Shown here: one piece after another, positions 1,988-18,118 of the stretch
How positions within the stretch are numbered: the stretch's first letter is position 1
Layout of the letters: each line of letters opens with the position of its first letter
Source of the DNA: Nitrospira sp.
GTDB taxonomy: Bacteria > Nitrospirota > Nitrospiria > Nitrospirales > Nitrospiraceae
Assembly: GCA_029865225.1 (NCBI GenBank)
Contig: JAOUHJ010000001.1
Location: 24,512 to 88,511, forward strand
Length of the DNA stretch: 64,000 bases
Direction: 5' to 3'
The notes under the pieces: generated by a model
The model's input: the letters and a program-made list of their open reading frames with translations, nothing else
Databases searched by the model: none
Told to the model about the DNA's origin: nothing
Position numbers and translations under genes: made by a program

Positions 1988-4615
1988 TTAGAGAGCCAGT
2001 TTTCGCAGACGGAGTGCGTTGGCGATCACTGAGACAGAGCTGAACGTCATCGCCGCACTTGCGATCATGGGACTCAAGAGCACCCCGACGAATGGATAGA
2101 GGATACCGGCAGCAATGGGAACACCCAGCGTGTTGTAGACGAAGGCAAAGAAGAGATTCTGTCGGATGTTCTTCATTGTGCCGCGGCTTAAGCGCCGGGC
2201 CCGCACGATGGCTCGAAGATCCCCCTTGACCAACGTCACCCCCGCGCTTTCCATCGCGACATCGGTCCCGGTTCCCATGGCAATCCCCACCTGAGCTTGC
2301 GCCAGGGCCGGAGCATCATTGATCCCGTCACCAGCCATGGCTACCACATGTCCTTCTGATTGGAACTGTTTGACGACCGCGGTCTTTTGGTCGGGCAACA
2401 CTTCGGCACGAACATCATCCAGCTGAAGCCGTCGCCCCACTGCCTCAGCAGTCGTTCGATTGTCGCCGGTCAGCATCACGATCCGCAGGCCTTCCTTGTG
2501 CAAGAGGTCGATGGCCTCCGGCGTGGTGGACTTGATGGGATCGGCGACGCCCAGTAACCCTGCCGGCTTGCCGTCGATTGCCGCAAACATCACGGTTTGG
2601 CCTTCATTTCTCAAAGGTTCGGCCTGAGCCGATAGCGCCGTGGTCTCGATGTTTAGTTCGTTCAGAAACTGGGCAGTCCCCACGGTCACCATACGACCTT
2701 CAACTCTACCCGTGACTCCCTTACCCGTGACTGAACGAAAATCCTGGGCCTTCGCTGGAACGATCTCTTTGCCCCGTGCGCCTGACACAATCGCCGCCGC
2801 TAAGGGATGTTCGCTGTTCTGCTCCAGACCAGCTGCCAGACGAAGCAATTCGGTTTCGTCAAAATCCGGCAACGGAGCGACTGTCATCAGACGTGGTTTG
2901 CCTTCCGTGAGCGTCCCGGTCTTGTCCACCACGAGAACGTCCACCTTAGCCAAAGTCTCAAGGGCCTCAGCATTGCGGATGAGCACACCGGCTGTCGCGC
3001 CACGACCCGTCCCGACCATGATCGACATGGGGGTGGCCAACCCTAAGGCACAGGGGCACGCGATGATCAACACCGCGACCGCATTCAATAGAGCATAGGC
3101 CATGCGAGGTTCGGGACCAACGAATGCCCAGATTGCGAATGTCACGACGGCGACCGCGATCACGCTCGGCACGAAGTAGGCAGCGACAAGGTCGGCGAGC
3201 CGCTGAATCGGCGCACGGGTGCGTTGGGCCTCACTGACCATCCGCACAATTTGCGCCAGCAGCGTCTCTCGGCCGACTCGTTCCGCCTGCATGACGAAAC
3301 TTCCCGTTCCGTTGACGGTGGCCCCCACGACCTTTTTCCCCGATTGCTTCTCCACCGGAATCGGCTCACCGGTCACCATCGATTCATCGACGGTACTCGA
3401 GCCTTCGATCACTGCACCGTCCACCGGAATCTTCTCGCCTGGTCGCACGCGTAACCGATCACCGACCTGTACCTGTTCCAAGGGAATATCTTCCTCGCGG
3501 CCGTCGCGTCGAATCACGCGGGCCGTTTTCGGCGCCAGCCCCAAGAGTGCCTTGAGGGCACTGCTGGTCCGGCTTCTGGCTCGCAGCTCCAGCACCTGTC
3601 CCAGCAACACGAGGGCGATGATCGCCACCGCCGGTTCAAAATAGACGGCGAGATCCCCTCCATGCGTACGGAAGGACTCAGGAAACATCCCAGGAACCAG
3701 CGTGGCTGCAACACTATAGAGATACGCTGCGCCAGTCCCAAGTCCAATGAGCGTGAACATGTTGAGGTGGCGACTGATGATCGACGACCACGCGCGCTCG
3801 AACAGCGGTCGACCGATCCACAACACCACCGGTGTGGCCAGCAAAAACTGAAGCCAGACAAGCACTCGACTAGAAACAAGTTGTTGCAACGGCTGCCCCG
3901 GCAACATCTCGGAAATCATCAGGGCAAAAATCGGCGCCCCAAGTGCCACGCTCTGCCAGAAGCGGCGCGTCATATCCACAAGTTCCGGATTGGTTTCTTC
4001 CACCGTCACCGTGCGCGGCTCCAAGGCCATGCCACACATGGGACAGCTCCCAGGTTCAGCCTGGACGACCTCCGGATGCATGGGGCAGGTATATTCGGTG
4101 CGAGTCGGCAGAGCGGTCACGTCCTCAGGCTCCAGCGCCATCCCGCAGATGGGACAGGCCCCAGGCTTGGTTTCTGACACCTCGGGGTCCATCGGGCAGA
4201 CATAGTTGACGTTGTCCCCGGCTGGAGTCGGAGTGGGTTTCGGAACGCGCTGTTCCAGTGGGGTCAAATAATACTCAGGGTCGGCTCGGAACTTGTCGAG
4301 GCATCTGGTCGCGCAGAAATAGTATTTCTTGTCGCGATACTCAAATGACCCCGCTGCCGAATCTGGCTGAACCGTCATCCCACAGACCGGATCGATCTCG
4401 CCCTGATGAGCCGGTTGCATCATCGGCAACGGCTTCCGCGTCGCAGGCATCGTGATGAGATTCAGTGGCTTCTTGCTGAGCGCCCGCTCCGGGTCGGCAC
4501 GAAATCGTTCCAGACAGGACACAGCACAGAAATAGTAGGTCGTCCCCTTATGTTCGTGCTGACCAGCCGCCTTGGAGGGATCAACTGTCATGCCGCAGAT
4601 AGGATCGATGGCCAT
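1988..4615 (-). CDS. copA: copper(I)-translocating P1B-type ATPase
   Basis: 875-aa ORF with motifs TGEP, CPC ([13 protein letters not shown]), DKTGTLT, MLTGDN and [10 protein letters not shown], plus YN and MxxSS in the last TM helices (Cu+/Ag+ subtype). The N-terminus has two CGMTV...YYFC (YHS/TRASH-like) modules and two CPMxPEV...CPxCGMALEP modules instead of a classical MxCxxC HMA domain. Confidence 0.93.
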
Positions 4616-4691: not shown

Positions 4692-5366
4692 TTACTTCTT
4701 GGCATCCGCCTCGAGGATGCTCCGAACAATAGTGACCACGTTTTCAGGTGTCATGTTCACACCGTCGACTTTGATATTCCCATCCAGCAAGAGCGAAGGC
4801 GTAGACGACACTTTAATCCGCTCTCCCCATCGACGCCCCTCTTCAAACAACCTGGCCGGCTTGCCGCTTTCCAGCCCTGCCTCAAAAGCCTTCACATCCA
4901 AGCCGACCTCGTTGATCAAGAGCGACCGAATCGAACGATCTAGCACTCCGTCGAGCTTCTCCTTGTGAATGGTGCGAAAGAGCACGGTTTTCATCTGATC
5001 TCCCTTGCCCATCAACTTGGCTTGCTCATACATATCGAAGGCCGTAGGGAGCTTCCCGGGAATAACAGGAAACCCGACCATCGTAATCTCCACCTTGTCA
5101 CCGAATTCCTTCCGGAGAAGAGTGACCCCCGTCTCTTCGAAATGATGGCAGTGGGGACAATAGAAGTCGGCGAACTCGATTATTTTCACCTTACCCAGCT
5201 GATGTGTCGAAGCTTCGTCTTTGAGTATTTCGAACTTTCCCTTGAGCTCTGGTTTGGCTGCCTGTGCGCTGAACGGCACAGCCAACAGCCCGATCGCTCC
5301 CACAAGCAATAGCATCCTCTTCCACATCGCCGTCGTTCGACCACCCATCTTCCATGCTCCTTTCAC
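4692..5366 (-). CDS. DsbA-family thiol:disulfide oxidoreductase (secreted thioredoxin fold)
   Basis: 224-aa ORF with a signal peptide (LLLVGAIGLLAVPFSAQA) and active site FYCPHCHHFE (CPHC). It lies directly upstream of, and on the same strand as, the Cu-ATPase. The true start may be an internal Met (MWKRMLLL). Confidence 0.8.
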   Translation of the reverse strand: MKGAWKMGGRTTAMWKRMLLLVGAIGLLAVPFSAQAAKPELKGKFEILKDEASTHQLGKVKIIEFADFYCPHCHHFEETGVTLLRKEFGDKVEITMVGFPVIPGKLPTAFDMYEQAKLMGKGDQMKTVLFRTIHKEKLDGVLDRSIRSLLINEVGLDVKAFEAGLESGKPARLFEEGRRWGERIKVSSTPSLLLDGNIKVDGVNMTPENVVTIVRSILEADAKK

Positions 5367-5423
5367 AGATCAATACCTAAAGCCCAGGTCCATTATAACG
5401 GATAGAGGGCCTCCTTGCGCCTT

Positions 5424-5432
5424 TGTTATAAT
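5424..5432 (+). promoter_or_regulatory. extended -10 promoter element (TGTTATAAT) for the slp-like gene
   Basis: TGtTATAAT is read directly at 5424-5432. The hexamer ends 6 nt before the ATG at 5439, so the predicted start site falls on or next to the start codon (possible leaderless mRNA). There is no good -35, which is consistent with extended -10 promoters. Confidence 0.4.
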
Positions 5433-5438
5433 GAGGCA

Positions 5439-5984
5439 ATGAGACGATCCTGGTCTATCTATCTTTTCTCCGGATTCGTCGCCCTGTCAGGCTGTGCAAC
5501 ATCGGAACATCAGGCCGACGGTCTGCCGTCAGGTACACCTCAGATCAGTTATGCGCAGGTGAAGTCGACCCCCGAATCCTACAACGGGCAGTCGGTGACA
5601 TTCGGGGGAAAAGTCTTGGGAGCGCGGCGGCTCAAGGAAGGTACCAGAATTGAGATCTTACAACTTCCGCTGACGTCTTCTCTTCAACCGACCATGGACC
5701 TCAGTCGGTCTGAAGGTCGCTTTGTGGCCCTACAGAAATCTTTTCTCGATCCGGCCACCATCCCACCCGGTACGTTCCTCACCGTGACGGGAGAGCTGGC
5801 CGGTACCATCGTCTTACCGTTGGACGAAACCGAGTATACCTACCCGCTCATACACATCACCAATCTGCGTGTGTTCACTGAGGATGATAGGGATCCACCC
5901 CGCATTCGCCGTCCCATCGGCCCAGGCCCCTACTGGGGGCCCTATTGGTCTCCCTACTGGCACCCCTGGCCGTATTATTGGTAG
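5439..5984 (+). CDS. slp: Slp-family outer-membrane lipoprotein
   Basis: Lipobox LSGC, then the Slp-like pattern Y.GQ.V.FGGKV...EILQLPL...GRF.A....FLDP recalled from E. coli Slp. The C-terminal tail is aromatic and Pro/Gly-rich (GPYWGPYWSPYWHPWPYYW). I prefer the ATG at 5439 to the TTG at 5415 given in the track. Confidence 0.7.
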   Translation: MRRSWSIYLFSGFVALSGCATSEHQADGLPSGTPQISYAQVKSTPESYNGQSVTFGGKVLGARRLKEGTRIEILQLPLTSSLQPTMDLSRSEGRFVALQKSFLDPATIPPGTFLTVTGELAGTIVLPLDETEYTYPLIHITNLRVFTEDDRDPPRIRRPIGPGPYWGPYWSPYWHPWPYYW

Positions 5985-6619: not shown

Positions 6620-6976
6620 CTATGGTTTCGCATAGCGGCTGAGGTATCGGCTGATAGCCTCTCGTTCGGACTCGGTCAAAGATGGGAGTCCTTTTTCTCG
6701 CATCAATCGTTCCATCCTCGGCAATACTTCCTGCCATTCCGCTATCGTTCGGAACCGAGGGTCGGGCACGCCATGAGCAAGCCCATGGTTTCCAAATGGC
6801 TTTCCGTGACAGGCACTACACCGCTGTGCAAAGACTCGTCCGTCAGAGGTATCCAGCTCCGGGATTCCTGTAAAGACGCCCCCGCAGCCACCAATCCACA
6901 GCGATGCCGAAAGGCCCAAGCCATAGGCATGCAAGCGACCGCTTGCGCAGATTAGTTTCACGAAGCTGGACCTCAC
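6620..6976 (-). CDS. small c-type cytochrome (putative lipoprotein)
   Basis: 118-aa ORF with a hydrophobic N-terminus and a lipobox-like IGGC. It has a single CxxCH haem-binding motif (CSACHG). No other family assignment is possible by eye. Confidence 0.6.
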   Translation of the reverse strand: MRSSFVKLICASGRLHAYGLGLSASLWIGGCGGVFTGIPELDTSDGRVFAQRCSACHGKPFGNHGLAHGVPDPRFRTIAEWQEVLPRMERLMREKGLPSLTESEREAISRYLSRYAKP

Positions 6977-7255: not shown

Positions 7256-7398
7256 AGGACACAAATCCCAGTTAAGACCAATACCTGCACTCAATAGAAA
7301 GCTTATCTGCCTCTATACGGCATATCCGACAACCCGTCTACCGACACCTGCTCACGGATGCTACAAAATCGATGGCCTACGCCGATACATTTATAGAG

Positions 7399-7650
7399 CT
7401 ACAACCCTTTCGATGCCGAACACGTATTGGGTATGTCAATTTCATTCCGTTCGACTAGACCGACGATAGAATCACGAAAGATCCGTAGACTGCTCTTCCC
7501 AACTTTCGTTCCTCGTAACCGACCTTCCTCCACCCATCGATAGATGGTCCACCGACTAACCGAAAGGAACTCAGCCGCTTCTCCGACCCGTAAAAATGTT
7601 TTACCTTCGATAGCCGCCAATGCGTGACCTGCTCCACGAGTGACAGACAT
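7399..7650 (-). CDS. excisionase-family (MerR-superfamily) helix-turn-helix DNA-binding protein
   Basis: 83-aa ORF. FLRVGEAAEFLSVSRWTIYRWVEEGRLRGTKVG matches the HTH_17/excisionase signature. A strong SD (AAGGAGGGG) precedes the ATG. Confidence 0.8.
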   Translation of the reverse strand: MSVTRGAGHALAAIEGKTFLRVGEAAEFLSVSRWTIYRWVEEGRLRGTKVGKSSLRIFRDSIVGLVERNEIDIPNTCSASKGL

Positions 7651-7884
7651 GAGGTCCCCTCCTTCTTAGCTTAGGAGATATCCTAAAAGAGGCCGAGCGT
7701 CACACCTCCATAGATCGTTTCTTCGTTCCTCTCCCTGCAACTCATCGAATTCCTGCAGAATGGTCTCAACTGTTTGTGCAGTTCCTGCTCACGCGGTGAG
7801 ACGGTCGGATCTCCAACCGAAGTATCTTGAGCAAACACGGCGCAGCCAGTGAGGCGACCCACGCTCGTGCCATGTACGACTGAT

Positions 7885-8208
7885 CTAGATTTCGAAGAGG
7901 CTCAGCGAGGGAGGCGCGCGAGAACGAGAAACCGTCACAATCAGAGAACTTTGCGGGATAACGCGAATGAGCCGCTGAATCGCCGTAAGGATGACACCGG
8001 CGAGGAGCGGCGCGGCTGCATGGAGGCTGACCGTGGGATTTACCTGGCACAGCCAGGCACAAAGCATGGAGTGCGCAGCATGAGACCCGCTTTCGTGAGC
8101 ATGGTGCAGCCCATGCAGCTGCACAAAGAGACACCCGGCCGCGCCGAACACCAGCACCACGTAGACGAGCAGGACCGCAATGGCGACTGTTGCAAAACCA
8201 CGCTTCAT
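7885..8208 (-). CDS. small secreted His-rich CxWxC protein, paralog 4 (uncharacterised family)
   Basis: I take the start at the internal ATG 8208 (MKRGFATVAIAVLLVYVVLVFG, a signal/TM segment). HGLHHAHESGSHAAHSMLCAWLC and the C-terminal SRAPPS align with the ORFs at 12686, 14835 and 11137. The competing ORFs 7766..8134(-) and 7849..8229(+) lack this paralogy. Confidence 0.65.
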   Translation of the reverse strand: MKRGFATVAIAVLLVYVVLVFGAAGCLFVQLHGLHHAHESGSHAAHSMLCAWLCQVNPTVSLHAAAPLLAGVILTAIQRLIRVIPQSSLIVTVSRSRAPPSLSLFEI

Positions 8209-8346
8209 TTCATTCTTTCGAGTGCTTGACGCACGAGCGCGACCGACCGCCTGACCATCTTGCGAGAACAGGGCGGTCGTCGGCAAACCTTTATCGTATT
8301 GGAATCCGTTCAATCACCTCATGGTATTTCAATTCTGTTCGACTCA

Positions 8347-9279
8347 TTAACCCGCCAGCCGATACACGATCGGAAGGGTCACGACGATGTGCGGCTTCCC
8401 GATGGCCTGCTTCATCTGAAGCGGGCAGGCAAGCCTGACCGCTTCCATCGCCGCCTCGTCGAGTGCACTGTAGCCGGAACTCTTCTGAACAGACACGGTC
8501 GCAAGCTGTCCATCAGATCGAATGACGGCTCTGAGAACGACCTTCCCCTCTTCGCCGTTCATACGCGACGAGTTCGGATAGCGTTTGAGTTCCGCCACCC
8601 GCCTCCACAGTGACTCAGCCAACCATCGGTTATCTGCTTTCGCTTCCGGACCGGAGGCCTGAGTTTCGGCGTTCCCCACCGGGGCGGCATCCATATGACG
8701 GGGATGCGTCTCAGCCGGAGCAGGAGCCTCTTGGAATACAGCAACATCCGGAGCCGCTGCGACCGCAACCGACTCAGGTTCCACAGATTGTGACTCGACC
8801 GGCTCGGGGACGGGCGCAGCCAGAACTGGCTTAGGTTGTTCCGTTTCAGCAACCGTCTCGGCAACTTCGACGTGTCGTTGTTCTACCGGTTCTTCGCGGA
8901 GCTGAGGAAGCTCGACCTTCTGCTCAATCGGCGGCACCTGCTCGATCGCCGGTTGCGGGGGTTCGACCTTCTGTTCCTTCGGAATGACCGGTCGGGAAGT
9001 TTCCGGTACTGGCTTGGTTCGTGACGGAAGGAGCTTCTCTACCGGGGGTTGTGCCGATGCAACGACCGATGAGGCCTGCTCCGACTTGGAGTGGGGTCTT
9101 GCCTCTTCCACCAACGCCACATCCCATTGGAACGTTTCGCCTTGGAGGACAGGTTTGACTTGCGCAACAAATATGAACGCTAAGCCGACCACCGCTCCAT
9201 GCAGGATGACTGAAATACCCCAAGCAGGGAACCAGAACTGAGTATCGTCCTTCAAGATCATTCTTCTCGCAACACTCAC
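8347..9279 (-). CDS. tonB: TonB-family energy transducer
   Basis: 310 aa with an N-terminal TM anchor (GISVILHGAVVGLAFIFV), a long Pro/Glu/Val-rich spacer, and a TonB C-terminal domain (YPNSSRMNGEEGKVVLRAVIRSDGQLATVSVQKSSGYSALDEAAMEAV). Confidence 0.85.
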   Translation of the reverse strand: MSVARRMILKDDTQFWFPAWGISVILHGAVVGLAFIFVAQVKPVLQGETFQWDVALVEEARPHSKSEQASSVVASAQPPVEKLLPSRTKPVPETSRPVIPKEQKVEPPQPAIEQVPPIEQKVELPQLREEPVEQRHVEVAETVAETEQPKPVLAAPVPEPVESQSVEPESVAVAAAPDVAVFQEAPAPAETHPRHMDAAPVGNAETQASGPEAKADNRWLAESLWRRVAELKRYPNSSRMNGEEGKVVLRAVIRSDGQLATVSVQKSSGYSALDEAAMEAVRLACPLQMKQAIGKPHIVVTLPIVYRLAG

Positions 9280-9321
9280 TCAGCAAACAGCAAACCCAAC
9301 CATTCAACCTATGTAGAGTAG

Positions 9322-9399
9322 AAAAAGTGCGGGGCCGAGGTCAAGGGAGGTGACCCTCCGCCCCGCTCTGGTCCGAGCCGGAGGGCAGCCGGCTCGGAC
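9322..9399 (-). terminator. double-hairpin intrinsic terminator module (copy 2)
   Basis: On the minus strand there is an 11-bp perfect hairpin gtccgagccgg/ccggctcggac (9371-9399). A 12-bp hairpin follows, gcggggccgagg/cctccgccccgc (9329-9366, one mismatch), then ACTTTTTC. It lies about 100 nt downstream of the beta-propeller gene stop. Confidence 0.65.
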
Positions 9400-9499
9400 A
9401 TATTCCTACTTCAGCTCAATCACCAATTCGTCACGTTGTCGATGGGCGGCCCATCGGCGGGTTCCACCAGCCGACAGGCTGCCACTATCTGCTCTCGGA

Positions 9500-11056
9500 C
9501 TAATTGGTCGCCTGGTTACCTGCCGCTGCCGCACCTGGGTAGTAGACCAAGACCCCATTGGGTGCCGACCCAACCCCCACATGTTGTTTGATCGAATTGT
9601 CGGTGGCATTGATGATGGTCACCGACCCAGGAGTGCCAGTATTGGACACAACAATATACTTGGCTTCTCCCGCTCCTGATGCGCCTTGTGCCAATACATC
9701 CATGCCATGTCCTCCTGTTTGCAACAGCTGGATCTCGGCAAGCAGGGTGAGGGCAGGTTGTGCCGCAGGCGCCGCTGGGACGAGCGTCGAAGCGTCGAAC
9801 GCAAAGAGACGATCCTTCTTCGTCGCGGTCGCCGCATTGCCGGCCAGAATGTAGAACCGCTTTCCGTCTGGTGAAAACTTGAACGTGCCAGGCGAGGTTC
9901 CGGCCAGCTCCGGAATGGTGAAATCGGTTCGTGGATTGTTGGCTGTCCCAAGATCAATTACACCAAGTTTTGTGCCCGTCGGAGGGGTTGTGTCGCCTCG
10001 TAACAACAAGAACCGACCATCTGGTGAAATTCCAAATGACGTGTACGGCGTGCTGGTGAGGTCGATACGATTGGTGATATCAAATGTTTTCGGATCAATT
10101 TCAGCGATTTCTCCGTATCCCTCTTGAATACTGTAGACTTTCCCGGTCAACTTCGACCAACGGATACCATGAGGGGCAGAATCGTTTGGAGTAAAAGCGG
10201 TAGTACCGGTCGGATTCTCCGGATTGCAGGTTTCTTTTTGAGGATTGCACATATCGATTCGCCGGATCATTTGATACTTAGTCGAAGAGTTTGGCTCATT
10301 ATCAATTACTGCAACCTCTCCAGCTATTTCACTGGACACAAATGCCCGCCTTGGGATCGTAGCATCGGTGGCCGTCGGCTGTGAAAAGGCCGTGACTTTA
10401 TGCCCATCGGCAAGAAGGCAGACTGTGGCTTCAATCTCAGGGTCATGGGCACCCGGGCCTTGATGAGAGTTGTGAATAATGGTGACAGACCCTCCTTCAA
10501 CCGGGCCACCAACTCGATTAGGATTATTGCAATTGATCGTGTCGTCACCAGGCGTCGTGGTGTTGATCGTGATCGTATCGTTCATGGACCATATGACTTC
10601 TCCGTTGGTCGGATCACGATAGATGTGAACAGGACGCACCCCAGTGGGAAGATTGGTCCTATGGATCGGCGTTGCACTATTGATCGGGTCGAGGGCAGCC
10701 ACTTTCGTTCCGACATTCTGGCTATTATTTTGTCCATCGTTGATGCCGCTGATATTGACGAAGACCCACTCCCCCGAGGTGAACTGCATGTCGCCAAGCG
10801 CAAGATTTCCGAACGTGGTATTGGGAATCGTATTGAGCACTGCGCTGTTCGAATCGCCTCTCAATGCCACACTGGTCAACGAACGATCGCCTGTATTATT
10901 CACGAATGCGATTGGTCCGCTGAGTCCGGCGCTACCATCGGGCGTCAACGTCCCGGTGTCATCACCCGAACTACAGGCAGCCAGACCGATCAGCGCAAGC
11001 CCTAGCGCGCCCGTTGTGACATATGATGCATACGTTCGTCTCTTCATGGTTTCCAT
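9500..11056 (-). CDS. beta-propeller repeat lipoprotein (YVTN-like)
   Basis: Lipoprotein signal (GLALIGLAACSSGDD). Repeated beta-propeller-like segments, e.g. SVTIINATDNSIKQHVGVGSAPNGVLVY and GEVAVIDNEP. I chose the start at ATG 11056 (METMKRR) because AGGAAGG lies 8 nt upstream. The track ORF extends to 11140. Confidence 0.75.
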   Translation of the reverse strand: METMKRRTYASYVTTGALGLALIGLAACSSGDDTGTLTPDGSAGLSGPIAFVNNTGDRSLTSVALRGDSNSAVLNTIPNTTFGNLALGDMQFTSGEWVFVNISGINDGQNNSQNVGTKVAALDPINSATPIHRTNLPTGVRPVHIYRDPTNGEVIWSMNDTITINTTTPGDDTINCNNPNRVGGPVEGGSVTIIHNSHQGPGAHDPEIEATVCLLADGHKVTAFSQPTATDATIPRRAFVSSEIAGEVAVIDNEPNSSTKYQMIRRIDMCNPQKETCNPENPTGTTAFTPNDSAPHGIRWSKLTGKVYSIQEGYGEIAEIDPKTFDITNRIDLTSTPYTSFGISPDGRFLLLRGDTTPPTGTKLGVIDLGTANNPRTDFTIPELAGTSPGTFKFSPDGKRFYILAGNAATATKKDRLFAFDASTLVPAAPAAQPALTLLAEIQLLQTGGHGMDVLAQGASGAGEAKYIVVSNTGTPGSVTIINATDNSIKQHVGVGSAPNGVLVYYPGAAAAGNQATN

Positions 11057-11136
11057 GGACATTACCTTCCTCGTTAATTGTCGTCGTCTTATTTTTACTG
11101 TGGTGGAAGCACAGACGGCTCCCAGACCGATACGTT

Positions 11137-11481
11137 TCATGCAATCTGAAAGAGAACTCGCGGTGGGCCGCGAGGGGGAAATTGACTATCCACAACATCG
11201 ACTGGTAGGAGAATGGCGCCGAGACTCCAGACGAGGCTCACCTGAATATCAGCCGTCGCTTCGCTTCGTCCGCCACCGCTCCGGATATCGAGGCCGCCGC
11301 AGTGCCACGCACAATGATTGTGGCTCTGTTGACCGTTCTGCGTCTGTCCTTGTGGACAGTGCGGCGCAGTCCACTGTGCCGTCAGATTCCCTTGGCCGAC
11401 CGACAAGAATCCTGTCAGCCAGAGCACGGCGCAGCAGCTTGTGAGCACCTGAGCGATGTGTTGTCGCGTTTTCGTCAACAT
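11137..11481 (-). CDS. small secreted Cys/His protein with CxWxC motif, paralog 3 (divergent)
   Basis: Hydrophobic N-terminus (VLTSCCAVLWLTGFLSVG). SHNHCAWHCGG aligns with LCAWLCAGG of paralog 2, and the C-terminal PPRGPPR aligns with FFRGPPRF. The start is uncertain between 11481 and 11505. Confidence 0.55.
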   Translation of the reverse strand: MLTKTRQHIAQVLTSCCAVLWLTGFLSVGQGNLTAQWTAPHCPQGQTQNGQQSHNHCAWHCGGLDIRSGGGRSEATADIQVSLVWSLGAILLPVDVVDSQFPPRGPPRVLFQIA

Positions 11482-11513
11482 GGCCGATCGAGACTCACGC
11501 TCCATCTTATGGT

Positions 11514-12587
11514 CTATGAAGATCCACCAAATAGTTGGAACGACTTCGTCACCCCGAAGATGTAGCTGATCTGTTGCTCCAGATTGCCGTTGAAGTCACG
11601 GTGGATGGGGATTTGCGCGATGAAATAGGCCGACGCAAAGTTGAACACGTTCACCATGATACCCGGCGAATAGGCAAGGTACGTTGAGCCGGTGGTCGGC
11701 ACGGATCGAAACTTGATGGCAGGATCAAGCAAGATCGACGAGCCGGTAGTCGGGTTGAACTGAAACAGCGCCGCATCCATCGCGTCGTTCTGCATCCATC
11801 GGAAGTTGAACTGCTGCATCAGCACCAACCAGGGTGTTTTCTCGAGCGGAATAATATTGAGCCCCAAGCTCACGTTCACTTCGTCCCCGAACTTGTACCC
11901 GTCGCTGTTCTTCGCCGTGTACCGATAGCTCGCCAAGGCGAATTGATTCAGCCGATGGGGAATCAGCTCATAGGTCTGATAGATCATCGGGACGACACCG
12001 AAGTTCCCGCGCCCGATTTGAAGCGTTGATTCAGCCAAGGTGTTTGGGTTCGCAAGCCGACCATAGTCGCCGGTTGGAAAATCAACTCCCACCCCCAGCA
12101 CGACCATGCTGCGCAAGGTAGGCAACAGGTTGTACTTTAATGTCGCGCGAATATCGCCGAGCCCTCCCTCACTATAGGGCACCGGATTGAGCCCTCCGAT
12201 CTGCGCATCAGACTCGACATGCTTGTAGGGAAACGCCACTTGGATGCCGAGGCGTTCCGTCAAACCGTAGTTGAGATCGAGAGTCGCGGTGCGTGTCGTG
12301 GTCTCGATGCGGTTGACATTCAAGTTTGCCAGTGTGAGGGTCTTGGCACCCTGGTTGGCAAAGGGAATGCGTCCACCTTCGCCTGAAGGCGCCTCCATCG
12401 GGGTCCAGTTGTAGATGGCATTGACGGTTAGAAGGCCTTTCATCGGCACCTGTTGTTGAGACCCGATCACGACGAAGCAACTGACCGAGCCGCAAGATGC
12501 ATCGACCTGTGTTGGGCTGATCGTCGGGACCACGATTCCGATGACAGCAGCGATGGGGAGCACAGAAGTCCAAATCGTACGCAACAT
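11514..12587 (-). CDS. beta-barrel outer-membrane protein, paralog B (MetA-pathway/transporter-like OMP family, from memory)
   Basis: I take the start at ATG 12587 (MLRTIWTSVLPIAAVIGIVVP, a signal peptide). The mature N-terminus is SCGSVSCFVVIGSQQQVP. The body has alternating beta-strand patterns with GLGD and FPTGDY motifs. It is a clear paralog of 13592..14719. The upstream part of the track ORF (12588-12845) overlaps the small gene at 12686. Confidence 0.8.
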   Translation of the reverse strand: MLRTIWTSVLPIAAVIGIVVPTISPTQVDASCGSVSCFVVIGSQQQVPMKGLLTVNAIYNWTPMEAPSGEGGRIPFANQGAKTLTLANLNVNRIETTTRTATLDLNYGLTERLGIQVAFPYKHVESDAQIGGLNPVPYSEGGLGDIRATLKYNLLPTLRSMVVLGVGVDFPTGDYGRLANPNTLAESTLQIGRGNFGVVPMIYQTYELIPHRLNQFALASYRYTAKNSDGYKFGDEVNVSLGLNIIPLEKTPWLVLMQQFNFRWMQNDAMDAALFQFNPTTGSSILLDPAIKFRSVPTTGSTYLAYSPGIMVNVFNFASAYFIAQIPIHRDFNGNLEQQISYIFGVTKSFQLFGGSS

Positions 12588-12685
12588 GATTCCACACTCT
12601 TTCTGTTGAGCAATACGGCAGGATCCGAGTATCGGAACCCTCCGCAAGACACGGTTGTTAAGAATGTGCGCCCGAACTATGAGCG

Positions 12686-12994
12686 CTATACAAGGAAGCG
12701 AGGAGGACCACGGAAGAAGTACGGGAGCGAGAGCGCACTGAGGACGACCCCAAAAGATGGATGGCTGAGGCTTTCGAGGAGCTGAAGCGATGAAACGAAT
12801 TGAATAACAGACGACGTAATCCCGACTCCACCCGCGCACAACCACGCGCAGAGGCCTGTGGAGTGGGTACCAGCCTGATGGTCCGCATGGTGCTCAGCAT
12901 GACCAACGCTGGGTACGGCCATGGCGCCGTTCACCAGTATGATGCAGAGCAGCAAGGCCCAGACTAACGCGGGTCGTTTTAACTCAACCGTCAT
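12686..12994 (-). CDS. small secreted His-rich CxWxC protein, paralog 2
   Basis: 102 aa with a signal peptide (ALVWALLLCIILVNGAMA). The mature part is GHAEHHADHQAGTHSTGLCAWLCAGG and the C-terminus is RGPPRFLV. It starts 9 nt after the TlpA-like gene stop. Confidence 0.7.
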   Translation of the reverse strand: MTVELKRPALVWALLLCIILVNGAMAVPSVGHAEHHADHQAGTHSTGLCAWLCAGGVGITSSVIQFVSSLQLLESLSHPSFGVVLSALSLPYFFRGPPRFLV

Positions 12995-13003
12995 ACGGTT
13001 CTT

Positions 13004-13567
13004 CTACTGCAGCGCCGCAGCCTTCATCACTTCCGGTTTCTGGATACGGGCCACGGTATCAAGGATAACCTTTTCGGTTAGGAGCCCGCCCTTGATGTAC
13101 TCACGAACCACGCCTTTTTCATCGATGAACACGCTGACCGGTAAGCCGAAGACGCCGAACTGGTTTGCAACCTTGTTGTCACGATCCATCAACACCGGGA
13201 ACGTATGGCCATGCTGCGTGATATGTTCACGAACTTTGGTCTCGTCTTCTAATTCATTCACAGCCAATACCACAAATCCCTTATCCCGCAACTTATCGTA
13301 CATCGCCTGCATGGCCGGCATTTCCGTCGTGCAGGGTTTGCACCAGGTGGCCCAGAAGTTGACTAGTACGACCTGCCCTCGATACTGGCTCAAGCTCTGC
13401 TGCTTACCTGCCAGATCCGTGAGCTGAAAATCCTCCGCAGTCGTCCCCACGGCCGGAACACGAGAGCCCATCGCCCATACCAAGCTGCTGCCGATGAGGA
13501 GCGTCACACCCAGCGTGAGCATTCCAATCTTCGATCCTGATACCGCCCTTATTGTTGCACCCATCAC
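13004..13567 (-). CDS. TlpA/ResA-family periplasmic thiol:disulfide oxidoreductase
   Basis: 187 aa with an N-terminal anchor and the thioredoxin motif FWATWCKPC. The body (VVLVNFWATWC...VLAVN...FPVLMD...YGV.GLP..F.ID) is typical of the AhpC/TSA-TlpA fold. Confidence 0.88.
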   Translation of the reverse strand: MMGATIRAVSGSKIGMLTLGVTLLIGSSLVWAMGSRVPAVGTTAEDFQLTDLAGKQQSLSQYRGQVVLVNFWATWCKPCTTEMPAMQAMYDKLRDKGFVVLAVNELEDETKVREHITQHGHTFPVLMDRDNKVANQFGVFGLPVSVFIDEKGVVREYIKGGLLTEKVILDTVARIQKPEVMKAAALQ

Positions 13568-13591
13568 ACCCTCCTTCTGGTTCGCTGTGCC

Positions 13592-14719
13592 TTACGAACC
13601 ACTCTTCGTCAACTGGAACGATCTCGTCACCCCAAAGATATAGCTGATGCCCTGGGCAAGGTTGTTGTTGGAATCCCGCATGATTGGTATCTGCGAATGG
13701 AAATACAACGACGTCCACTTGGTCAACGGCGAATCGATCAGTCCGTCGAGACTCACCTGGAATCCAGGTGAAAACGCGAAATAGGTTGAGCCGGTCGTCG
13801 GCACCCGGCGGTTTGCAATCGTGGGGTCAAGCACGATCGTCTCACCGGGGAAGTCTGGAGCATCGGCGGGCGTTGCGGATCGCTCCAACGAGGCGCTGAT
13901 ATTGTCGTGAACGAGATACCGCCAATGAAACTGCCCGGTGAGCACCAGCCACGGTGCACGCTCCAAAGGAACGCCGCTCGCGCCTAGATTGAGATTGTAC
14001 TCATCGCCAAACTGGTACCCATCGTTGTTCCGGAAAGTATGGCGATAACTGCCGTAGAAAAACTGATTGAGCCGATGAGGAATCAGTTCGTAGGTTTGAT
14101 AGAGCGACCCGATGAGTCCGACGTTACCCCGACCCAGCTGAGTCGGCGACTCCATCAACTCACCGGCATCATCGAGCGCGCTGGTGCTCCCTGTGGGTAC
14201 CTGCACACCAAACCCGGCGACAATCATGCTCCGCAGTGTGGGAAGCACGTTGTACTTGGCCGTGATGATCATGTCTCCGATTCCGTTGTCCCGAAACGGA
14301 ACCAGTTCCCCCTCACCATTGGCCCCTTCTTCTCCCAATCCATCGATATGTTTATGCGTTCTCCACAAATATGGAATGGACACCTGCACACCGAGCCGAT
14401 CTGTAATGCCGTAGTTCAAGTCAAAATTGACGGTTTGCGTGATCGTTCGGACCTCTTGATGGTGGTCCAGAATGAGGCGGCGTCCGGCTTGGTCGATCGC
14501 AGGGATCACGCCGTTCGTCCCATCCAGCAAGCGCATCGGCGTGTAGTTGTACATCGTGTTGAACGTCAAGATGCCAGCCTGTGGCACCTGTTGCTGTGAT
14601 CCAATCACTACAAAGCAGGTCACCGACCCGCAGGCAGCCTCGGCTTGCTGAAGGACGGGCCAGGTAGGGGCTACAATGCTCAACGAAAGTACAAACCCAA
14701 ATGCGAAACGCTTCACCAT
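13592..14719 (-). CDS. beta-barrel outer-membrane protein, paralog A (MetA-pathway/transporter-like OMP family, from memory)
   Basis: I take the start at ATG 14719 (MVKRFAFGFVLSLSIVAPTWP) with GAGG 8 nt upstream. The mature N-terminus is ACGSVTCFVVIGSQQQVP. It is collinear with 11514..12587 (TYELIPHRLNQF, RSVPTTGSTY and ISYIFGVT.SFQL are shared). Confidence 0.8.
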   Translation of the reverse strand: MVKRFAFGFVLSLSIVAPTWPVLQQAEAACGSVTCFVVIGSQQQVPQAGILTFNTMYNYTPMRLLDGTNGVIPAIDQAGRRLILDHHQEVRTITQTVNFDLNYGITDRLGVQVSIPYLWRTHKHIDGLGEEGANGEGELVPFRDNGIGDMIITAKYNVLPTLRSMIVAGFGVQVPTGSTSALDDAGELMESPTQLGRGNVGLIGSLYQTYELIPHRLNQFFYGSYRHTFRNNDGYQFGDEYNLNLGASGVPLERAPWLVLTGQFHWRYLVHDNISASLERSATPADAPDFPGETIVLDPTIANRRVPTTGSTYFAFSPGFQVSLDGLIDSPLTKWTSLYFHSQIPIMRDSNNNLAQGISYIFGVTRSFQLTKSGS

Positions 14720-14834
14720 GACGTATGACCTCGAACTCTTTTTCGATCTGAACGACTTCAGGCTGTGTTCCTTCATGTAGGTCTTAGTGACCTGCGTTCA
14801 GGAAGACGGCACTTAAGAACCGAAGGAAGATGAA

Positions 14835-15140
14835 TTATAAAGAGCAGGATGGGGGAGCCCGGCTAGAACTGATTTGAGAGGGCTGAAGAAACAGTTTATT
14901 CGAACTAACGGCCGGACTGAGGGCAATCGGGGCACGATGCGCCTCAATCAAGACAACTTCCGTATCGAGAACCGTACCAGCCGCGCACATCCAGGAACAG
15001 AGGACTGTACCGTGTGTCGCCGCCTGATGCTTGGCATGGTGCCCAGCATGTTCGGCCGCCTGAACCTGGGCCAAGCTTCCGACGAGAAGAATGCAGATTA
15101 CAAGAGCGATTGTTAGAAACTTGCGAAATGCGTCACTCAT
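14835..15140 (-). CDS. small secreted His-rich CxWxC protein, paralog 1
   Basis: 101 aa with a signal peptide (LTIALVICILLVGSLAQVQA). The mature part is AEHAGHHAKHQAATHGTVLCSWMCAAG and the C-terminus is SSRAPPSCSL. It is the first gene of the minus-strand cluster and is divergent from secA. Confidence 0.7.
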   Translation of the reverse strand: MSDAFRKFLTIALVICILLVGSLAQVQAAEHAGHHAKHQAATHGTVLCSWMCAAGTVLDTEVVLIEAHRAPIALSPAVSSNKLFLQPSQISSSRAPPSCSL

Positions 15141-15397
15141 ATATAGCTACAGCCTAGCGAGTGCTTCTGTATGAACAGACCAAGGCTGACAGGGACAAGT
15201 ACCACAGATGCAACAGGTACTACAACTCCGGGCCGAATGGTAGGCGCGAGTGGCAAGGCTTGTCAAGCGGTCGTTATGCGACCCGAGGATCGAGTAGGAT
15301 TCACTGATAAGATGCTGTATACTGCACAGTCTATTGAGACGTCGAGGCTCACCCACAACCAATACGACTTTTCTAAGTTCATAACACCAATCTAATT

Positions 15398-18118
<2,721 letters not shown>

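Follow-up and report, generated by a model that had tools for sequence, protein, structure and literature searches.

We propose, with a probability of roughly 0.7, that four small open reading frames, sP1-sP4, on the minus strand of the 64,000-nucleotide stretch of Nitrospira sp. DNA analysed here (‘the window’; Table 1) encode leader peptides that, like CruR and CutF, regulate in cis and act as nascent-chain metal sensors. Their architecture is that of the copper-responsive upstream ORFs CruR of Bordetella and CutF of Rhodobacter, and the sP proteins possess every feature used in the rule-based recognition of CutF-like proteins. The original prediction had taken the four ORFs, all of which are indeed present, for mature secreted proteins that bind, hand off or sense copper at the outer membrane together with protein partners. 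Its view that they are real, exported, rich in metal ligands and tied to copper and thiol-redox genes holds, and the pattern lies well outside what chance would give, a four-protein profile matching 976 database proteins at E<=0.01; its functional reading as envelope metal-handling proteins, however, gives way before the arrest core, the fixed-length ruler, the lack of predicted structure and the variety of target genes.

As had been recognized, each of sP1-sP4 carries a signal for export, a His-rich block, a strictly kept CxWxC motif and R(A/G)PP at the C-terminal end; the invariant positions of their alignment are H38, C48, W50, C52, R94, P96 and P97. Each has a hydrophobic N-terminal segment, with maximal 15-residue Kyte-Doolittle scores of 2.6-3.1 in sP1, sP2 and sP4 and a weaker one in sP3; weak hydropathy of the sP3 signal peptide counts against the leader-peptide reading. 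The linker from the last Cys to the Arg comprises 41, 41, 42 and 42 residues in sP1, sP2, sP3 and sP4, respectively, rather than the ∼45 first estimated, and R(A/G)PP is followed by 4, 4, 7 and 7 residues. Within the window, R[AG]PP occurs only 10 times in 497 stop-to-stop segments of at least 60 residues, and each of the six occurrences outside sP1-sP4 either falls within a real gene but out of frame or lacks conservation.

The sP pattern is kept by hundreds of Nitrospira homologs. Among the best 120 of the 976 matches, which include 17 orthologs of sP1, 65 of sP2 and 34 of sP3, C.W.C and R[AG]PP stand at a spacing of 41-43 in all 120; both motifs are likewise kept in 139 of 150 distant representatives (clusters at 50% identity), with a spacing of exactly 41 in 135 of these 139. 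In the same best 120 homologs and 139 of the 150 representatives, R[AGS]PP is located 1-8 residues from the C-terminus. Conserved sequence is confined to a ‘sensor block’ of ∼25 residues in which five His surround the Cys pair, and pairwise identity is 0.40 in the His block as compared with 0.10-0.14 in the central linker. The 33 residues after the sensor block are near-random in sequence, yet free of indels, and in the AF2 model of sP1 only the N-terminal helix is confident (pLDDT<50 for residues 56-97 and 99-101). The stretch preceding R(A/G)PP is a fixed-length, sequence-free ruler that is predicted to be disordered. The ruler of CruR measures 45 residues, as compared with 41-42 here, and is functionally required (PMC9426467).

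In experiments, no known ribosome-arrest core is stronger than RAPP and RGPP, which also withstand EF-P (PMC12992588, PMC10951233). Proteomes are poor in such cores, which are concentrated close to the C-terminus in small secreted proteins whose genes precede those for TonB-dependent receptors, copper chaperones and thioredoxin/DsbA proteins, and toeprinting placed an in vitro stall of CruR at its RAPP (PMC12992588). A resemblance to DUF2946 suggested originally led to the right literature, but the sP family could not be assigned to that Pfam family: the hhalign alignment is restricted to 8-10 residues at the RAPP core, sP4 alone among the paralogs yields a weak match (E 0.05), whose 14.8 bits fall short of the 23.7 required, and the sP-family HMM cannot tell DUF2946 proteins apart from RAPP peptides of the secD type. 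Since homology to DUF2946 is not demonstrable, we regard the sP proteins as a separate family of their own, still without a name, within a kind already known, and the leader-peptide reading rests on architecture, not descent, because only the RAPP core aligns.

Table 1. Features of the sP cluster and its same-strand context in the window.
Feature	Positions	Strand	Description
Multicopper oxidase	169-1959	-	without leader of the sP kind
Cu-type P1B ATPase	1988-4615	-	without leader of the sP kind
DsbA-like	4692-5366	-	without leader of the sP kind
Cytochrome c	6620-6976	-	without leader of the sP kind
HTH_17 / excisionase-family DNA-binding protein	7399-7650	-	strong Shine-Dalgarno AAGGAGGGG
TonB-dependent receptor relic	7686-7844	-	N-terminal ∼40 residues fused to C-terminal strand (...ETIYGGVTLGLF)
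sP4	7885-8208	-	predicted 107-aa leader peptide; sensor block LHGLHHAHESGSHAAHSMLCAWLC; 42-aa linker; RAPP (7909-7920); tail SLSLFEI
TonB-family energy transducer	8347-9279	-	TonB_C 5e-16; TIGR01352 2.5e-17
Lipoprotein	9500-11056	-	lipobox LAAC; weak beta-propeller-type repeats
sP3	11137-11481	-	predicted 114-aa leader peptide; variant sensor block HCPQGQTQNGQQSHNHCAWHC; 42-aa linker; RGPP (11161-11172); tail RVLFQIA
OMP2	11514-12587	-	OMP1 paralog; mature N-terminus CGSVSC
sP2-OMP2 spacer	12588-12685	-	98 nt
sP2	12686-12994	-	predicted 102-aa leader peptide; starts 9 nt after TlpA; sensor block GHAEHHADHQAGTHSTGLCAWLC; 41-aa linker; RGPP (12701-12712); tail RFLV
TlpA/ResA-type periplasmic thiol-disulfide oxidoreductase	13004-13567	-	WCKPC; 24 nt after OMP1
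OMP1	13592-14719	-	outer-membrane beta-barrel, PF13557 / COG4313 / FapF type
sP1-OMP1 spacer	14720-14834	-	115 nt
OMP1 Shine-Dalgarno	14729-14732	-	GAGG
sP1	14835-15140	-	predicted 101-aa leader peptide; signal peptide ends ...AQVQA, followed by AE; sensor block AEHAGHHAKHQAATHGTVLCSWMC; 41-aa linker; RAPP; tail SCSL
RAPP codons of sP1	14850-14861	-	predicted arrest site
Promoter-like site	15237-15266	-	TTGACA-18-TACCAT; upstream of sP1; consensus match only

An sP-family ORF lies directly upstream of an OMP homolog in 49 of 50 related loci, the exception being a fragment at a contig end, which corroborates the duplicated module of small ORF and OMP proposed originally. The order is constant across loci, with the sP ORF first, then a gap of 80-120 nt and then the target gene. 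In the window, gaps before sP genes are short where the preceding gene is close (9 nt for sP2 and 32 nt for sP3; 138 nt for sP4), and those after them are long: 115, 98 and 80 nt for sP1, sP2 and sP3, measured to the most probable downstream starts at 14719 (OMP1), 12587 (OMP2) and 11056 (lipoprotein). The ∼100 nt first given for sP1 and sP2 are thereby refined, and the placement of sP3 directly upstream of the lipoprotein gene stands. Genes found behind sP ORFs encode OMPs, propeller lipoproteins, TlpA, TonB, TonB-dependent receptors and HTH proteins, and a distant family member heads a TonB-TPR-TonB-ExbB-ExbD series. The constant sP-first order, the ruler and the arrest core fit leaders of the CruR/CutF type (PMC9426467; 10.1101/2022.11.11.516240) and not structural partners.

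OMP1, the longest ORF of which begins at 14776, matches the Pfam family Phenol_MetA_deg (29.6 bits; cutoff 22) and carries an invariant CGSVTC at its mature N-terminus (C30 and C35 invariant). The best Foldseek matches of its AF2 model (pLDDT 68, pTM 0.68) are FapF (5o67; E 2e-12) and the COG4313 channel 4rl8 (E 1e-10, TM 0.52/0.71). OMP2 (Phenol_MetA_deg, 41.9 bits) is a paralog, as predicted (50% identity, E 1e-116). Pfam also supports the identities first assigned to TonB, the DsbA-like protein, cytochrome c, the P-type ATPase, the multicopper oxidase and TlpA (AhpC-TSA 1e-32, Redoxin 9e-28; ResA subfamily 4.6e-41, below the curated cutoff). On the opposite strand, secA diverges from sP1 across 257 nt, a region that includes the promoter-like site of Table 1, and adjoins it in most loci; promoter-like consensus sites are no more numerous than expected from shuffling.

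The pyrimidine-rich tail/stop region of sP1, CUGCUCUUUAUAA, has its complement in AAAAAGAG, immediately 5' of the OMP1 Shine-Dalgarno, an arrangement that recalls the cutF-cutO stem-loop (10.1101/2022.11.11.516240). This duplex is weak in the window (-10.1 kcal/mol); in a comparison of 44 loci, the mean is -15.6 kcal/mol for cognate and -13.3 kcal/mol for non-cognate pairs (permutation p ∼5e-5), and this lineage-specific covariation survives thinning of the loci. No tail:RBS covariation is seen in the sP2 (p 0.96) and sP3 classes. For sP2, a hairpin at 12686-12668 (GCGCUC/GGGCGC) overlaps the stop codon, with a U-rich stretch behind it; among 18 distinct sequences, compensatory changes are seen in the window, in four further loci and, weakly, in a fifth. 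A second hairpin in the spacer, GGGUUCCGA/UCGGAUCCU, is conserved.

In sP3, the sensor block is Gln-rich with three Cys, the start at 11481 is supported by orthologs that are mostly 114 residues long, and a GC hairpin of 7 bp coincides with the RGPPR codons and precedes a U-tract (11174-11157). The lipoprotein gene, its predicted target, has a strong Shine-Dalgarno (GAGGAAGG) and follows sP3 in 11 loci; the protein has no Pfam family and no PDB relative by sequence. sP4 does lie downstream of TonB, by 138 nt, as noted originally, but its more telling neighbours are the receptor relic and the HTH_17 gene downstream. With receptors from two related loci as tblastn queries, 7841-7722 matches receptor residues 30-69 (E 4e-5) and 7715-7686 the last 10 residues (90% identity); the fusion of an N-terminal part to the C-terminal strand indicates an internal deletion of about 2.2 kb. 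Other Nitrospira carry intact receptors (Plug and barrel) 82-119 nt behind sP4 orthologs, and a TonB-dependent receptor likewise follows cruR (PMC12914433). The HTH_17 gene is the conserved last member of the sP4 module, located directly after the sP ORF or after the receptor in eight loci.

As a nascent-chain sensor, an sP peptide would be threaded co-translationally into the Sec translocon by its export signal, and the ribosome would then stall at RAPP/RGPP. For sP1, we predict the first Pro codon in the P site and the second in the A site, by analogy with the toeprinting of CruR (PMC12992588) and cryo-EM structures (PMC10951233). During the stall, the linker would span exit tunnel and translocon, placing the His-rich/CxWxC block at the periplasmic face, where copper binding, or the redox state of the two Cys (thiol or disulfide), may alter the pulling force on the chain. 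This force would set the duration of the stall, and thus the expression of the next cistron: predicted targets are OMP1 (with TlpA), OMP2 and the lipoprotein and, behind sP4, the TonB-dependent receptor (deleted here) and the HTH protein. The arrest, copper as the metal sensed and the link to the following gene are drawn from analogy, while the conservation, motifs, ruler, absence of a fold, gene order and nature of the targets were observed directly. We would guess, with a slight preference, that copper turns these targets off, as for CruR, since they represent import-type machinery (TonB, receptor, channels); in CutF copper acts in the opposite direction. Ensemble folding does not support the coupling step, as masking the footprint of a stalled ribosome leaves RBS accessibility in the sP1 class at 0.41 -> 0.42 (p 0.36); in the sP2 class it rises slightly, 0.32 -> 0.36 (p 0.027). 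Also counting against the leader-peptide reading, there is no general excess of hairpins after sP stop codons, and neither a clear C>G rut-like bias nor a conserved consensus structure is seen.

The same mechanism might serve another ligand (nickel, cobalt, zinc or iron) in some or all leaders, with sP3 as prime candidate, which counts against the copper reading. CutF-like clusters with His-only motifs adjoin HupE/UreJ nickel/cobalt genes, the sP sensor block is dominated by His, and the receptors after sP4 orthologs have no copper-specific NCBIfam match, the best being a sub-threshold PqqU. However, the Cys pair never varies, the genes for the Cu-type P1B ATPase and the multicopper oxidase adjoin the cluster without a break, and TlpA-type reductases serve copper-site assembly, so that we consider a different metal unlikely. 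It appears quite unlikely that sP1-sP4 are stable periplasmic or outer-membrane copper chaperones or shuttles trading metal with the neighbouring OMP, lipoprotein and TonB. Although the conserved penta-His and Cys-pair block, the export signals, the tight and conserved adjacency to envelope genes, and the copper-efflux and thiol-redox genes nearby would all suit a chaperone, nothing is conserved past the sensor block, the following 33 residues are predicted to be unstructured, the supposed partners are unrelated protein types, and a proteome-depleted R(A/G)PP at fixed distance from the ligands would serve no purpose at the end of a chaperone (PMC12992588); CutF, which is built alike, is broken down once it arrives in the periplasm (10.1101/2022.11.11.516240).

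We regard it as very unlikely that the peptides monitor export or disulfide formation, as SecM, ApdA and ApdP do for Sec, without sensing metal. The first RAPP-type peptides to be discovered precede sec and yidC genes (PMC7897499, PMC10987492), the divergent secA adjoins sP1 in most loci, TlpA and DsbA-like genes belong to the cluster, and in the CutF model arrest is relieved in part by a disulfide forming between the paired Cys; yet the opposite strand of secA makes control in cis impossible, five conserved His are a metal-site signature superfluous for an export monitor, and the targets are TonB, receptor and channel genes flanked by copper ATPase and multicopper oxidase. That the sP peptides, predicted to be disordered, are substrates rather than regulators, exported through the FapF-like OMP (FapF being a channel for unfolded polypeptides) to scavenge copper outside and recovered by the TonB-dependent receptor seen in relatives, with TonB in the cluster, is highly improbable, as this leaves the RAPP/RGPP core and exact ruler unexplained, sP ORFs also precede non-channel genes (propeller lipoproteins, TlpA, TonB, HTH), COG4313 channels carry small hydrophobic molecules, and no maturation or modification enzymes lie near the cluster.

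Regulators of the CruR/CutF kind were described only recently, and the leader-peptide reading adds a Nitrospira family that has no name yet and serves four times within a single cluster. The genes regulated most likely include two COG4313/FapF-like channels, TlpA, the lipoprotein, TonB and the HTH protein. With four leaders and their predicted targets, the cluster would constitute a single long operon of envelope genes with a gate at each leader.

Our analysis of the four small minus-strand ORFs sP1 to sP4, each combining an export signal, a His-rich block, a CxWxC motif and a C-terminal R(A/G)PP, suggests with a probability of about 70% that they are copper- or thiol-sensing RAPP/RGPP arrest leaders which gate successive modules of one envelope operon. 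The minus-strand genes between 7.3 and 15.2 kb are transcribed in the order tabulated, starting with sP1, OMP1, TlpA and sP2. The coordinates and the description of the four ORFs in the original prediction were correct apart from two details: (i) the variable region, put at ~45 residues, measures 41–42 residues from the last Cys of CxWxC to the Arg of R(A/G)PP, and (ii) the gaps to the following gene, put at ~100 nt for sP1 and sP2 with sP3 lying ‘directly upstream’ of its neighbor, are 115, 98 and 80 nt for sP1, sP2 and sP3, respectively, if the likeliest start of each downstream gene is taken. Ahead of the leaders, the gaps measure 9 nt (sP2), 32 nt (sP3) and 138 nt (sP4).

Genes of the sP cluster and its downstream neighborhood, listed from the first leader onwards
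Feature	Position (nt)	Strand	Remark
sP1	14835-15140	-	first in transcription order
OMP1	13592-14719	-	PF13557
TlpA	13004-13567	-	AhpC-TSA / Redoxin, WCKPC
sP2	12686-12994	-	
OMP2	11514-12587	-	PF13557
sP3	11137-11481	-	
lipoprotein	9500-11056	-	no family assigned
TonB	8347-9279	-	
sP4	7885-8208	-	
HTH_17	7399-7650	-	excisionase-type
cytochrome c	6620-6976	-	
DsbA-like	4692-5366	-	
Cu-type P1B ATPase	1988-4615	-	
multicopper oxidase	169-1959	-	

The small ORFs do have homologues: 976 proteins match the profile of the four at E≤0.01, and searching 1.8 billion cluster representatives exhaustively yielded at least 261 clusters (50% identity) at E≤1e-3. The best 120 of the 976 matches are Nitrospira or metagenome proteins, none of them with a Pfam domain, and comprise orthologues of sP1 (17), sP2 (65), sP3 (34) and sP4 (4), each forming its own orthologous group. 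Searches of the four proteins against Pfam and NCBIfam gave no family above cutoff, and Rfam gave no match with E≤1 over window positions 7300-15450. When the four are aligned, C, W, C, R, P, P and one His are invariant. The CXXXC-type motif C-x-W-x-C is present in all family members examined, and C.W.C together with R[AGS]PP is found in 120/120 close homologues and 139/150 representatives. Among these 139 the Cys-to-Arg spacing is exactly 41 residues in 135, the core is RGPP in 79, RAPP in 53 and RSPP in 5, and the tail following it is mostly 1–8 residues long; in the window, sP1 and sP4 carry RAPP, sP2 and sP3 carry RGPP, and the tails comprise 4–7 residues. The family logo (133 representatives) reads: export signal, H..HHAHH.A.TH...LC.W.CAAGQ, a stretch of ~33 residues, S-R-[AG]-P-P and 1–8 further residues.

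The ~33-residue stretch has a pairwise identity of 0.10–0.14, near random. In a mature protein there would be little reason to keep the length but not the sequence of a segment that leads up to R(A/G)PP. The N-termini are hydrophobic as judged from hydropathy (less so in sP3), and AXA-type sites are seen in two of them, sP1 (VQA|A) and sP2 (AMA|V). The AF2 model of sP1, based on an alignment of 80 sequences, contains a helix spanning residues 3–35 (pLDDT>90 in the first 20 residues), and the only confident helix is the signal peptide; residues 56–97 and 99–101 have pLDDT<50 and lack secondary structure. The anatomy of the sP ORFs is that of a nascent-chain sensor and not of a folded protein. 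From the copper-handling interpretation originally proposed, the link to copper is retained and the metal-handling role of the mature protein is not. A further reading, in which the sP peptides are RiPP or chalkophore precursors, was rejected because maturation genes are lacking nearby. Three additional R[AG]PP occurrences in the window were judged spurious: those at 30920 (ORF 30871-31104, +) and 42456 (ORF 42273-42503, +) are out of frame within nuoL and within an OMP gene of 461 aa, respectively, and a candidate fifth leader with RGPP at 5404 (+), in an ORF at 5221-5442 antisense to or upstream of DsbA/Slp, was rejected because conservation is missing already in L001, a locus related at 98%.

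RAPP and RGPP are the strongest ribosome-arrest cores known, with RAP in the P site blocking peptide bond formation with the A-site Pro-tRNA (PMC10951233). They are resistant to EF-P and depleted from bacterial proteomes, but accumulate close to the C-terminus of small proteins, secreted or membrane-bound, whose genes precede those of TonB-dependent receptors; other genes found behind such small ORFs encode YcnI, PCuAC, PepSY, DsbA and thioredoxin (PMC12992588). All four sP ORFs display this anatomy, having R-(A/G)-P-P near the C-terminus and preceding a putative regulated gene, and arrest itself is predicted. ApdA, ApdP, ApcA and the Streptomyces lividans set likewise have the arrest core of the sP ORFs in front of a regulated gene, the corresponding core of SecM being RAGP (PMC7897499; PMC10951233; PMC12992588). 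Some of the S. lividans RAPP peptides also resemble the sP ORFs in having conserved Cys/His residues and in preceding copper or thioredoxin genes, whereas the RAPP peptides described first monitor Sec or YidC, precede sec/yidC and possess neither a sensor block nor a ruler of the sP type. As a side observation, an RGPP small ORF (TLZ39217.1, 112 aa) is recorded upstream of a ~340-aa ‘transporter’ (supplement file 27, PMC12992588); since ‘transporter’ is also the NCBI name of Nitrospira PF13557 OMPs, pairs of a leader and a COG4313-type OMP may exist outside Nitrospira.

CutF of Rhodobacter capsulatus has a Sec signal, a CXXXC motif and a C-terminal PPP (PMC8456105; 10.1101/2022.11.11.516240). 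Its nascent chain senses periplasmic copper, whereupon a stem-loop hiding the cutO Shine-Dalgarno sequence is opened, and the mature protein is rapidly degraded (10.1101/2022.11.11.516240). By analogy, the mature sP product would be expected to be unstable as well. All features by which Ozturk et al. recognize CutF-like ORFs (PMC8456105; 10.1101/2022.11.11.516240; 10.1101/2025.02.05.636593), i.e., fewer than 150 aa, a signal peptide, a PP no more than 15 residues from the end, a same-strand downstream gene within 1000 nt and a Cys/His metal motif, are found in 4/4 sP ORFs. CutF and the sP ORFs have in common the Sec signal, CXXXC, Pro-Pro in the last 15 residues, a length below 150 aa and a same-strand target within 1 kb. 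They differ in the C-terminus (GPPPRL in CutF, R(A/G)PP in sP) and in the target: that of CutF is a multicopper oxidase, whereas the multicopper oxidase gene in the window is without a leader of the sP kind.

In CruR of Bordetella, an export signal and CXXC are followed, at a required spacing of 45 residues, by RAPP, which leaves three residues to the stop; the cruR gene heads a TonB-dependent-receptor operon that is repressed by copper, and CruR acts post-transcriptionally (PMC9426467). CruR stalls at RAPP in vitro (PMC12992588), and the protein from Bordetella pertussis (Bp2923) is the prototype of Pfam DUF2946 (PMC9426467; PMC12992588; PMC12914433). CruR and the sP ORFs are alike in being small exported upstream ORFs with a Cys-pair metal motif, an inter-motif spacer of fixed length, a C-terminal RAPP a few residues before the stop and an extended intergenic region behind them. 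A TonB-dependent receptor is the target of CruR and the predicted target of sP4 orthologues, and AhpC/TSA-type and TonB/ExbBD genes occur in operons of the CruR kind as they do with sP. However, sequence homology is undetectable beyond the RAPP core, the Cys motif is CXXC in CruR and CxWxC (CXXXC) in sP, and the spacer comprises 44–48 residues in CruR/DUF2946 (17 DUF2946 proteins measured in the same way) and 41–42 in sP. Unlike CruR, the sP family has an additional conserved penta-His block, uses RGPP as frequently as RAPP, occurs as four serial copies within one cluster, and has as predicted targets COG4313/FapF-type OMPs and a lipoprotein, in the phylum Nitrospirota.

The resemblance to DUF2946 named in the original prediction holds, whereas membership is not borne out. 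With the DUF2946 HMM (PF11162), only sP4 among the four window proteins gives a match, at 14.8 bits versus a cutoff of 23.7 (E 0.05). Across the family DUF2946 is the commonest sub-threshold match (30/80 members, best E 1.3e-3, and 9/81 members), and none of the 80 and 81 members scanned reaches the cutoff. When the family was compared by hhalign with 20 DUF2946-annotated proteins taken from the supplement of PMC12992588, only 8–10 residues around RAPP could be aligned (probability 53–70%), and the family HMM did not rank DUF2946 proteins above secD-preceding RAPP decoys. A tblastn search of sP4 against plasmids for DUF2946 relatives returned one chance match only. By the tests run, the sP family appears not to belong to DUF2946 and would be a sequence family of its own that shares the architecture, being either very divergent or convergent. 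Two RAPP upstream ORFs of FP929003.1, the Nitrospira defluvii genome, are listed in the ‘TonB-related’ class (supplement, PMC12992588), so that Nitrospira ORFs of the sP sort already figure in a bulk catalogue, albeit with no description; Nitrospira is not mentioned in the text of the CruR and CutF literature cited here. Read as arrest leaders, the sP ORFs would be an unnamed addition to a recently established kind of regulator, notable for a ruler kept strictly at 41 residues, a sensor of penta-His and CxWxC, four serial uses and COG4313/FapF-type channels as predicted targets.

Gene order was compared in 50 loci around OMP1 homologues from GTDB species genomes, all of them Nitrospira or Nitrospiraceae and the closest being Nitrospira sp. 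LAS72 (98%). The predicted adjacency of small ORF and OMP is conserved, the sP gene lying directly upstream of the OMP in every locus except L030, where the contig ends. The 100 motif-bearing sP ORFs include 45 sP1-OMP1, 16 sP2-OMP2 and 11 sP3-lipoprotein pairs, the remainder preceding TlpA, TonB, BNR-type propellers or HTH genes, and whatever the partner, the sP gene is the upstream member in every pairing. In L034 (5726-7123) and L040 (2321-3760, +), a BNR_2-type β-propeller replaces the OMP after the first leader and is followed by TonB and TlpA, which shows that modules are shuffled behind interchangeable leaders. In L051, a distant relative, one leader heads a TonB-TPR-TonB-ExbB-ExbD series and two more precede an HTH gene; the latter are tandem leaders at 10294-11131 (+), of 107 and 134 aa, ending in HSRAPPR and ARGPPSIHLC and located directly before HTH_17. 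In one Nitrospira MAG (L004), a small metal-binding protein (Pfam SMBP, E 3e-7) is encoded at 17414-17770 (+), with an sP4-like leader a few hundred nt ahead of it. The gene secA (15398-18118, +) diverges from the first leader across 15141-15397, as in most of L001-L050, and secA, with a SecA ~75% identical, also adjoins the first leader in L051; being on the opposite strand, it is not under cis control.

In five loci the sP4 orthologue precedes an ORF of 768–877 residues by at most ~120 nt (82–119 nt for unambiguous starts), and the two scanned (L003, L018) are TonB-dependent receptors with Plug and barrel; the pair has the arrangement of cruR. In the window, the segment 7686-7844 (-) just downstream of sP4 is a relic of such a receptor, in which ~40 N-terminal residues run directly into the C-terminal strand: 7841-7722 matches receptor residues 30–69 (tblastn, E 4e-5), 7715-7686 matches the last ten residues (tblastn), and the translation runs from the N-terminal region through into ...ETIYGGVTLGLF. 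The fused ends point to an internal deletion of ~2.2 kb, and a full-length ORF or receptor stands at the relic's place in L003, L012, L016, L018 and L034. The HTH_17 gene is likewise a conserved end-member of the sP4 module (L001, L009, L014, L018, L026, L033, L034, L051), placed either directly after the leader gene or after the receptor. We rejected its interpretation as a mobile-element remnant; its product could relay the periplasmic signal to transcription.

Among the other predicted targets, OMP1 and OMP2 are 50% identical to each other and match PF13557 (Phenol_MetA_deg) with 29.6 and 41.9 bits, respectively (cutoff 22). OMP1 is modelled as a β-barrel with medium confidence (pLDDT 68), and its best Foldseek matches are FapF (E 2e-12) and the COG4313 channel 4rl8 from Pseudomonas putida (E 1e-10). 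The TM scores with COG4313 Pput2725 (PDB 4rl8) and FapF (PDB 5o65) are 0.5 when normalized to the query and 0.65–0.7 when normalized to the target; however, OMP1/OMP2 are ~100 residues longer than these channels, share only 11–13% identity with them and possess an added N-terminal CG[AS]V[ST]C. This motif, as CG[AS]V[ST]C-FVVIGSQQQ at the mature N-terminus, is invariant in 30/30 aligned OMP homologues. It comprises residues 30–35 of OMP1 (~14615-14632), with an equivalent site in OMP2, and the region, of low AF2 confidence, is placed where COG4313/FapF channels have their plug segment. The gene directly after OMP1 encodes a TlpA-type reductase which contains WCKPC and scores above the cutoffs of AhpC-TSA and Redoxin; since it misses the NCBIfam equivalog cutoffs of ResA and TlpA, its assignment is at the family level only. 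A PDB sequence search gave no relative for OMP1 or the lipoprotein, and the latter has no family in Pfam or NCBIfam. A member of the COG4313/FapF family under a metal-sensing leader is not described in the literature cited here.

As to how a stall might be coupled to the next gene, the sP1 class has, like CutF, a candidate anti-Shine-Dalgarno-like element near the leader end that could pair with the RBS of the target. In the sP1 class, pyrimidine-rich codons after RAPP complement the purine-rich Shine-Dalgarno region of OMP1 ~100–120 nt away, and tail and RBS match in a lineage-specific manner (CCTCCTTCTCC/GGAGAAGGAGG in L013, CTTTCTCTCT/AGAGAGAAAG in L024, CTCTTT/AAAGAG in the window). Mean duplex energies are -15.6 kcal/mol for cognate versus -13.3 kcal/mol for non-cognate pairs (permutation p ~5e-5, n=44), with p values of 1.5e-4, 4.6e-3 and 1.6e-2 after thinning to 32, 24 and 17 lineages. 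In CutF, however, the stem-loop is compact and demonstrated, whereas the sP1 complementarity is long-range (~100 nt), modest and unsupported by ensemble folding: in partition-function calculations with the footprint of the stalled ribosome masked, RBS accessibility in the sP1 class changed from 0.41 to 0.42 (p 0.36). Covariation of tail and RBS is absent in the sP2 (p 0.96) and sP3 classes, and the sP2 class shows a small gain in RBS accessibility under the ribosome mask (p 0.027).

Local hairpins were found at two further leaders. At sP2, a hairpin at 12668-12686 (-), GCGCUC/GGGCGC, has a 5' arm starting at the last base of the stop codon and U-rich sequence behind it; compensatory variants are present in L003, L006, L009 and, weakly, L008, the hairpin is absent from more distant sP2 loci, and the sP2 spacer contains a second, conserved hairpin. 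At sP3, the RGPPR codons (11157-11174, -) form a 7-bp GC hairpin, CUCGCGG CCCA CCGCGAG, followed by the U-tract UUCUCUUUCA; it is the first-listed terminator-like match of the region and lies within the putative arrest site. Terminator-like matches in the region do not exceed the shuffled expectation, and hairpins right after stop codons, as in a terminator-like element, are not in excess (mean z -0.4 to +0.2). RNAalifold applied to the leader-target spacers of the four classes yielded no convincing consensus (0 to -6 kcal/mol, short local hairpins only), and a rut-like C>G bias is mild, confined to the first 60 nt (C 0.30 vs G 0.24) and not decisive. Rho-dependent coupling has been shown for CruR. 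Candidate routes from a stall to the next gene are unmasking of the Shine-Dalgarno sequence (as for CutF), Rho access (as for CruR) and attenuation.

The predicted targets are of the import type (channels, TonB, a receptor, and ExbBD in a relative), and we thus lean towards the view that copper would repress them, as it does for CruR. It is tempting to go further, to a reading which we consider rather unlikely, namely that the four leaders act as a serial translational ‘rheostat’ metering the operon modules according to periplasmic copper and thiol-redox state, with at least two sensor blocks, penta-His/CxWxC in sP1, sP2 and sP4 versus Gln-rich three-Cys in sP3, and that the COG4313/FapF-type OMPs, their CGxVxC kept reduced by TlpA, are an unrecognized uptake channel for copper (or a copper ligand) in nitrifying Nitrospira.

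In soils and in the treatment of water, Nitrospira oxidize nitrite and perform complete ammonia oxidation, and the outcome of competition among nitrifiers is influenced by the supply of copper (PMC13374858). If the four ORFs are indeed arrest leaders, Nitrospira would rely on nascent chains as metal sensors, instead of classical transcription factors, to control a set of outer-membrane channels together with a TonB system and a thiol reductase. The principle of CruR and CutF would then reach a new phylum and a new unnamed family, as well as new targets, above all COG4313/FapF-like channels, the substrates of which are largely unknown. The indel-free 41-residue spacing would offer research on arrest peptides a very clean natural ‘ruler’ for gauging the path through tunnel and translocon, and annotation of the sP ORFs, at present ‘hypothetical proteins’ with no Pfam family, could be changed to regulatory leaders.
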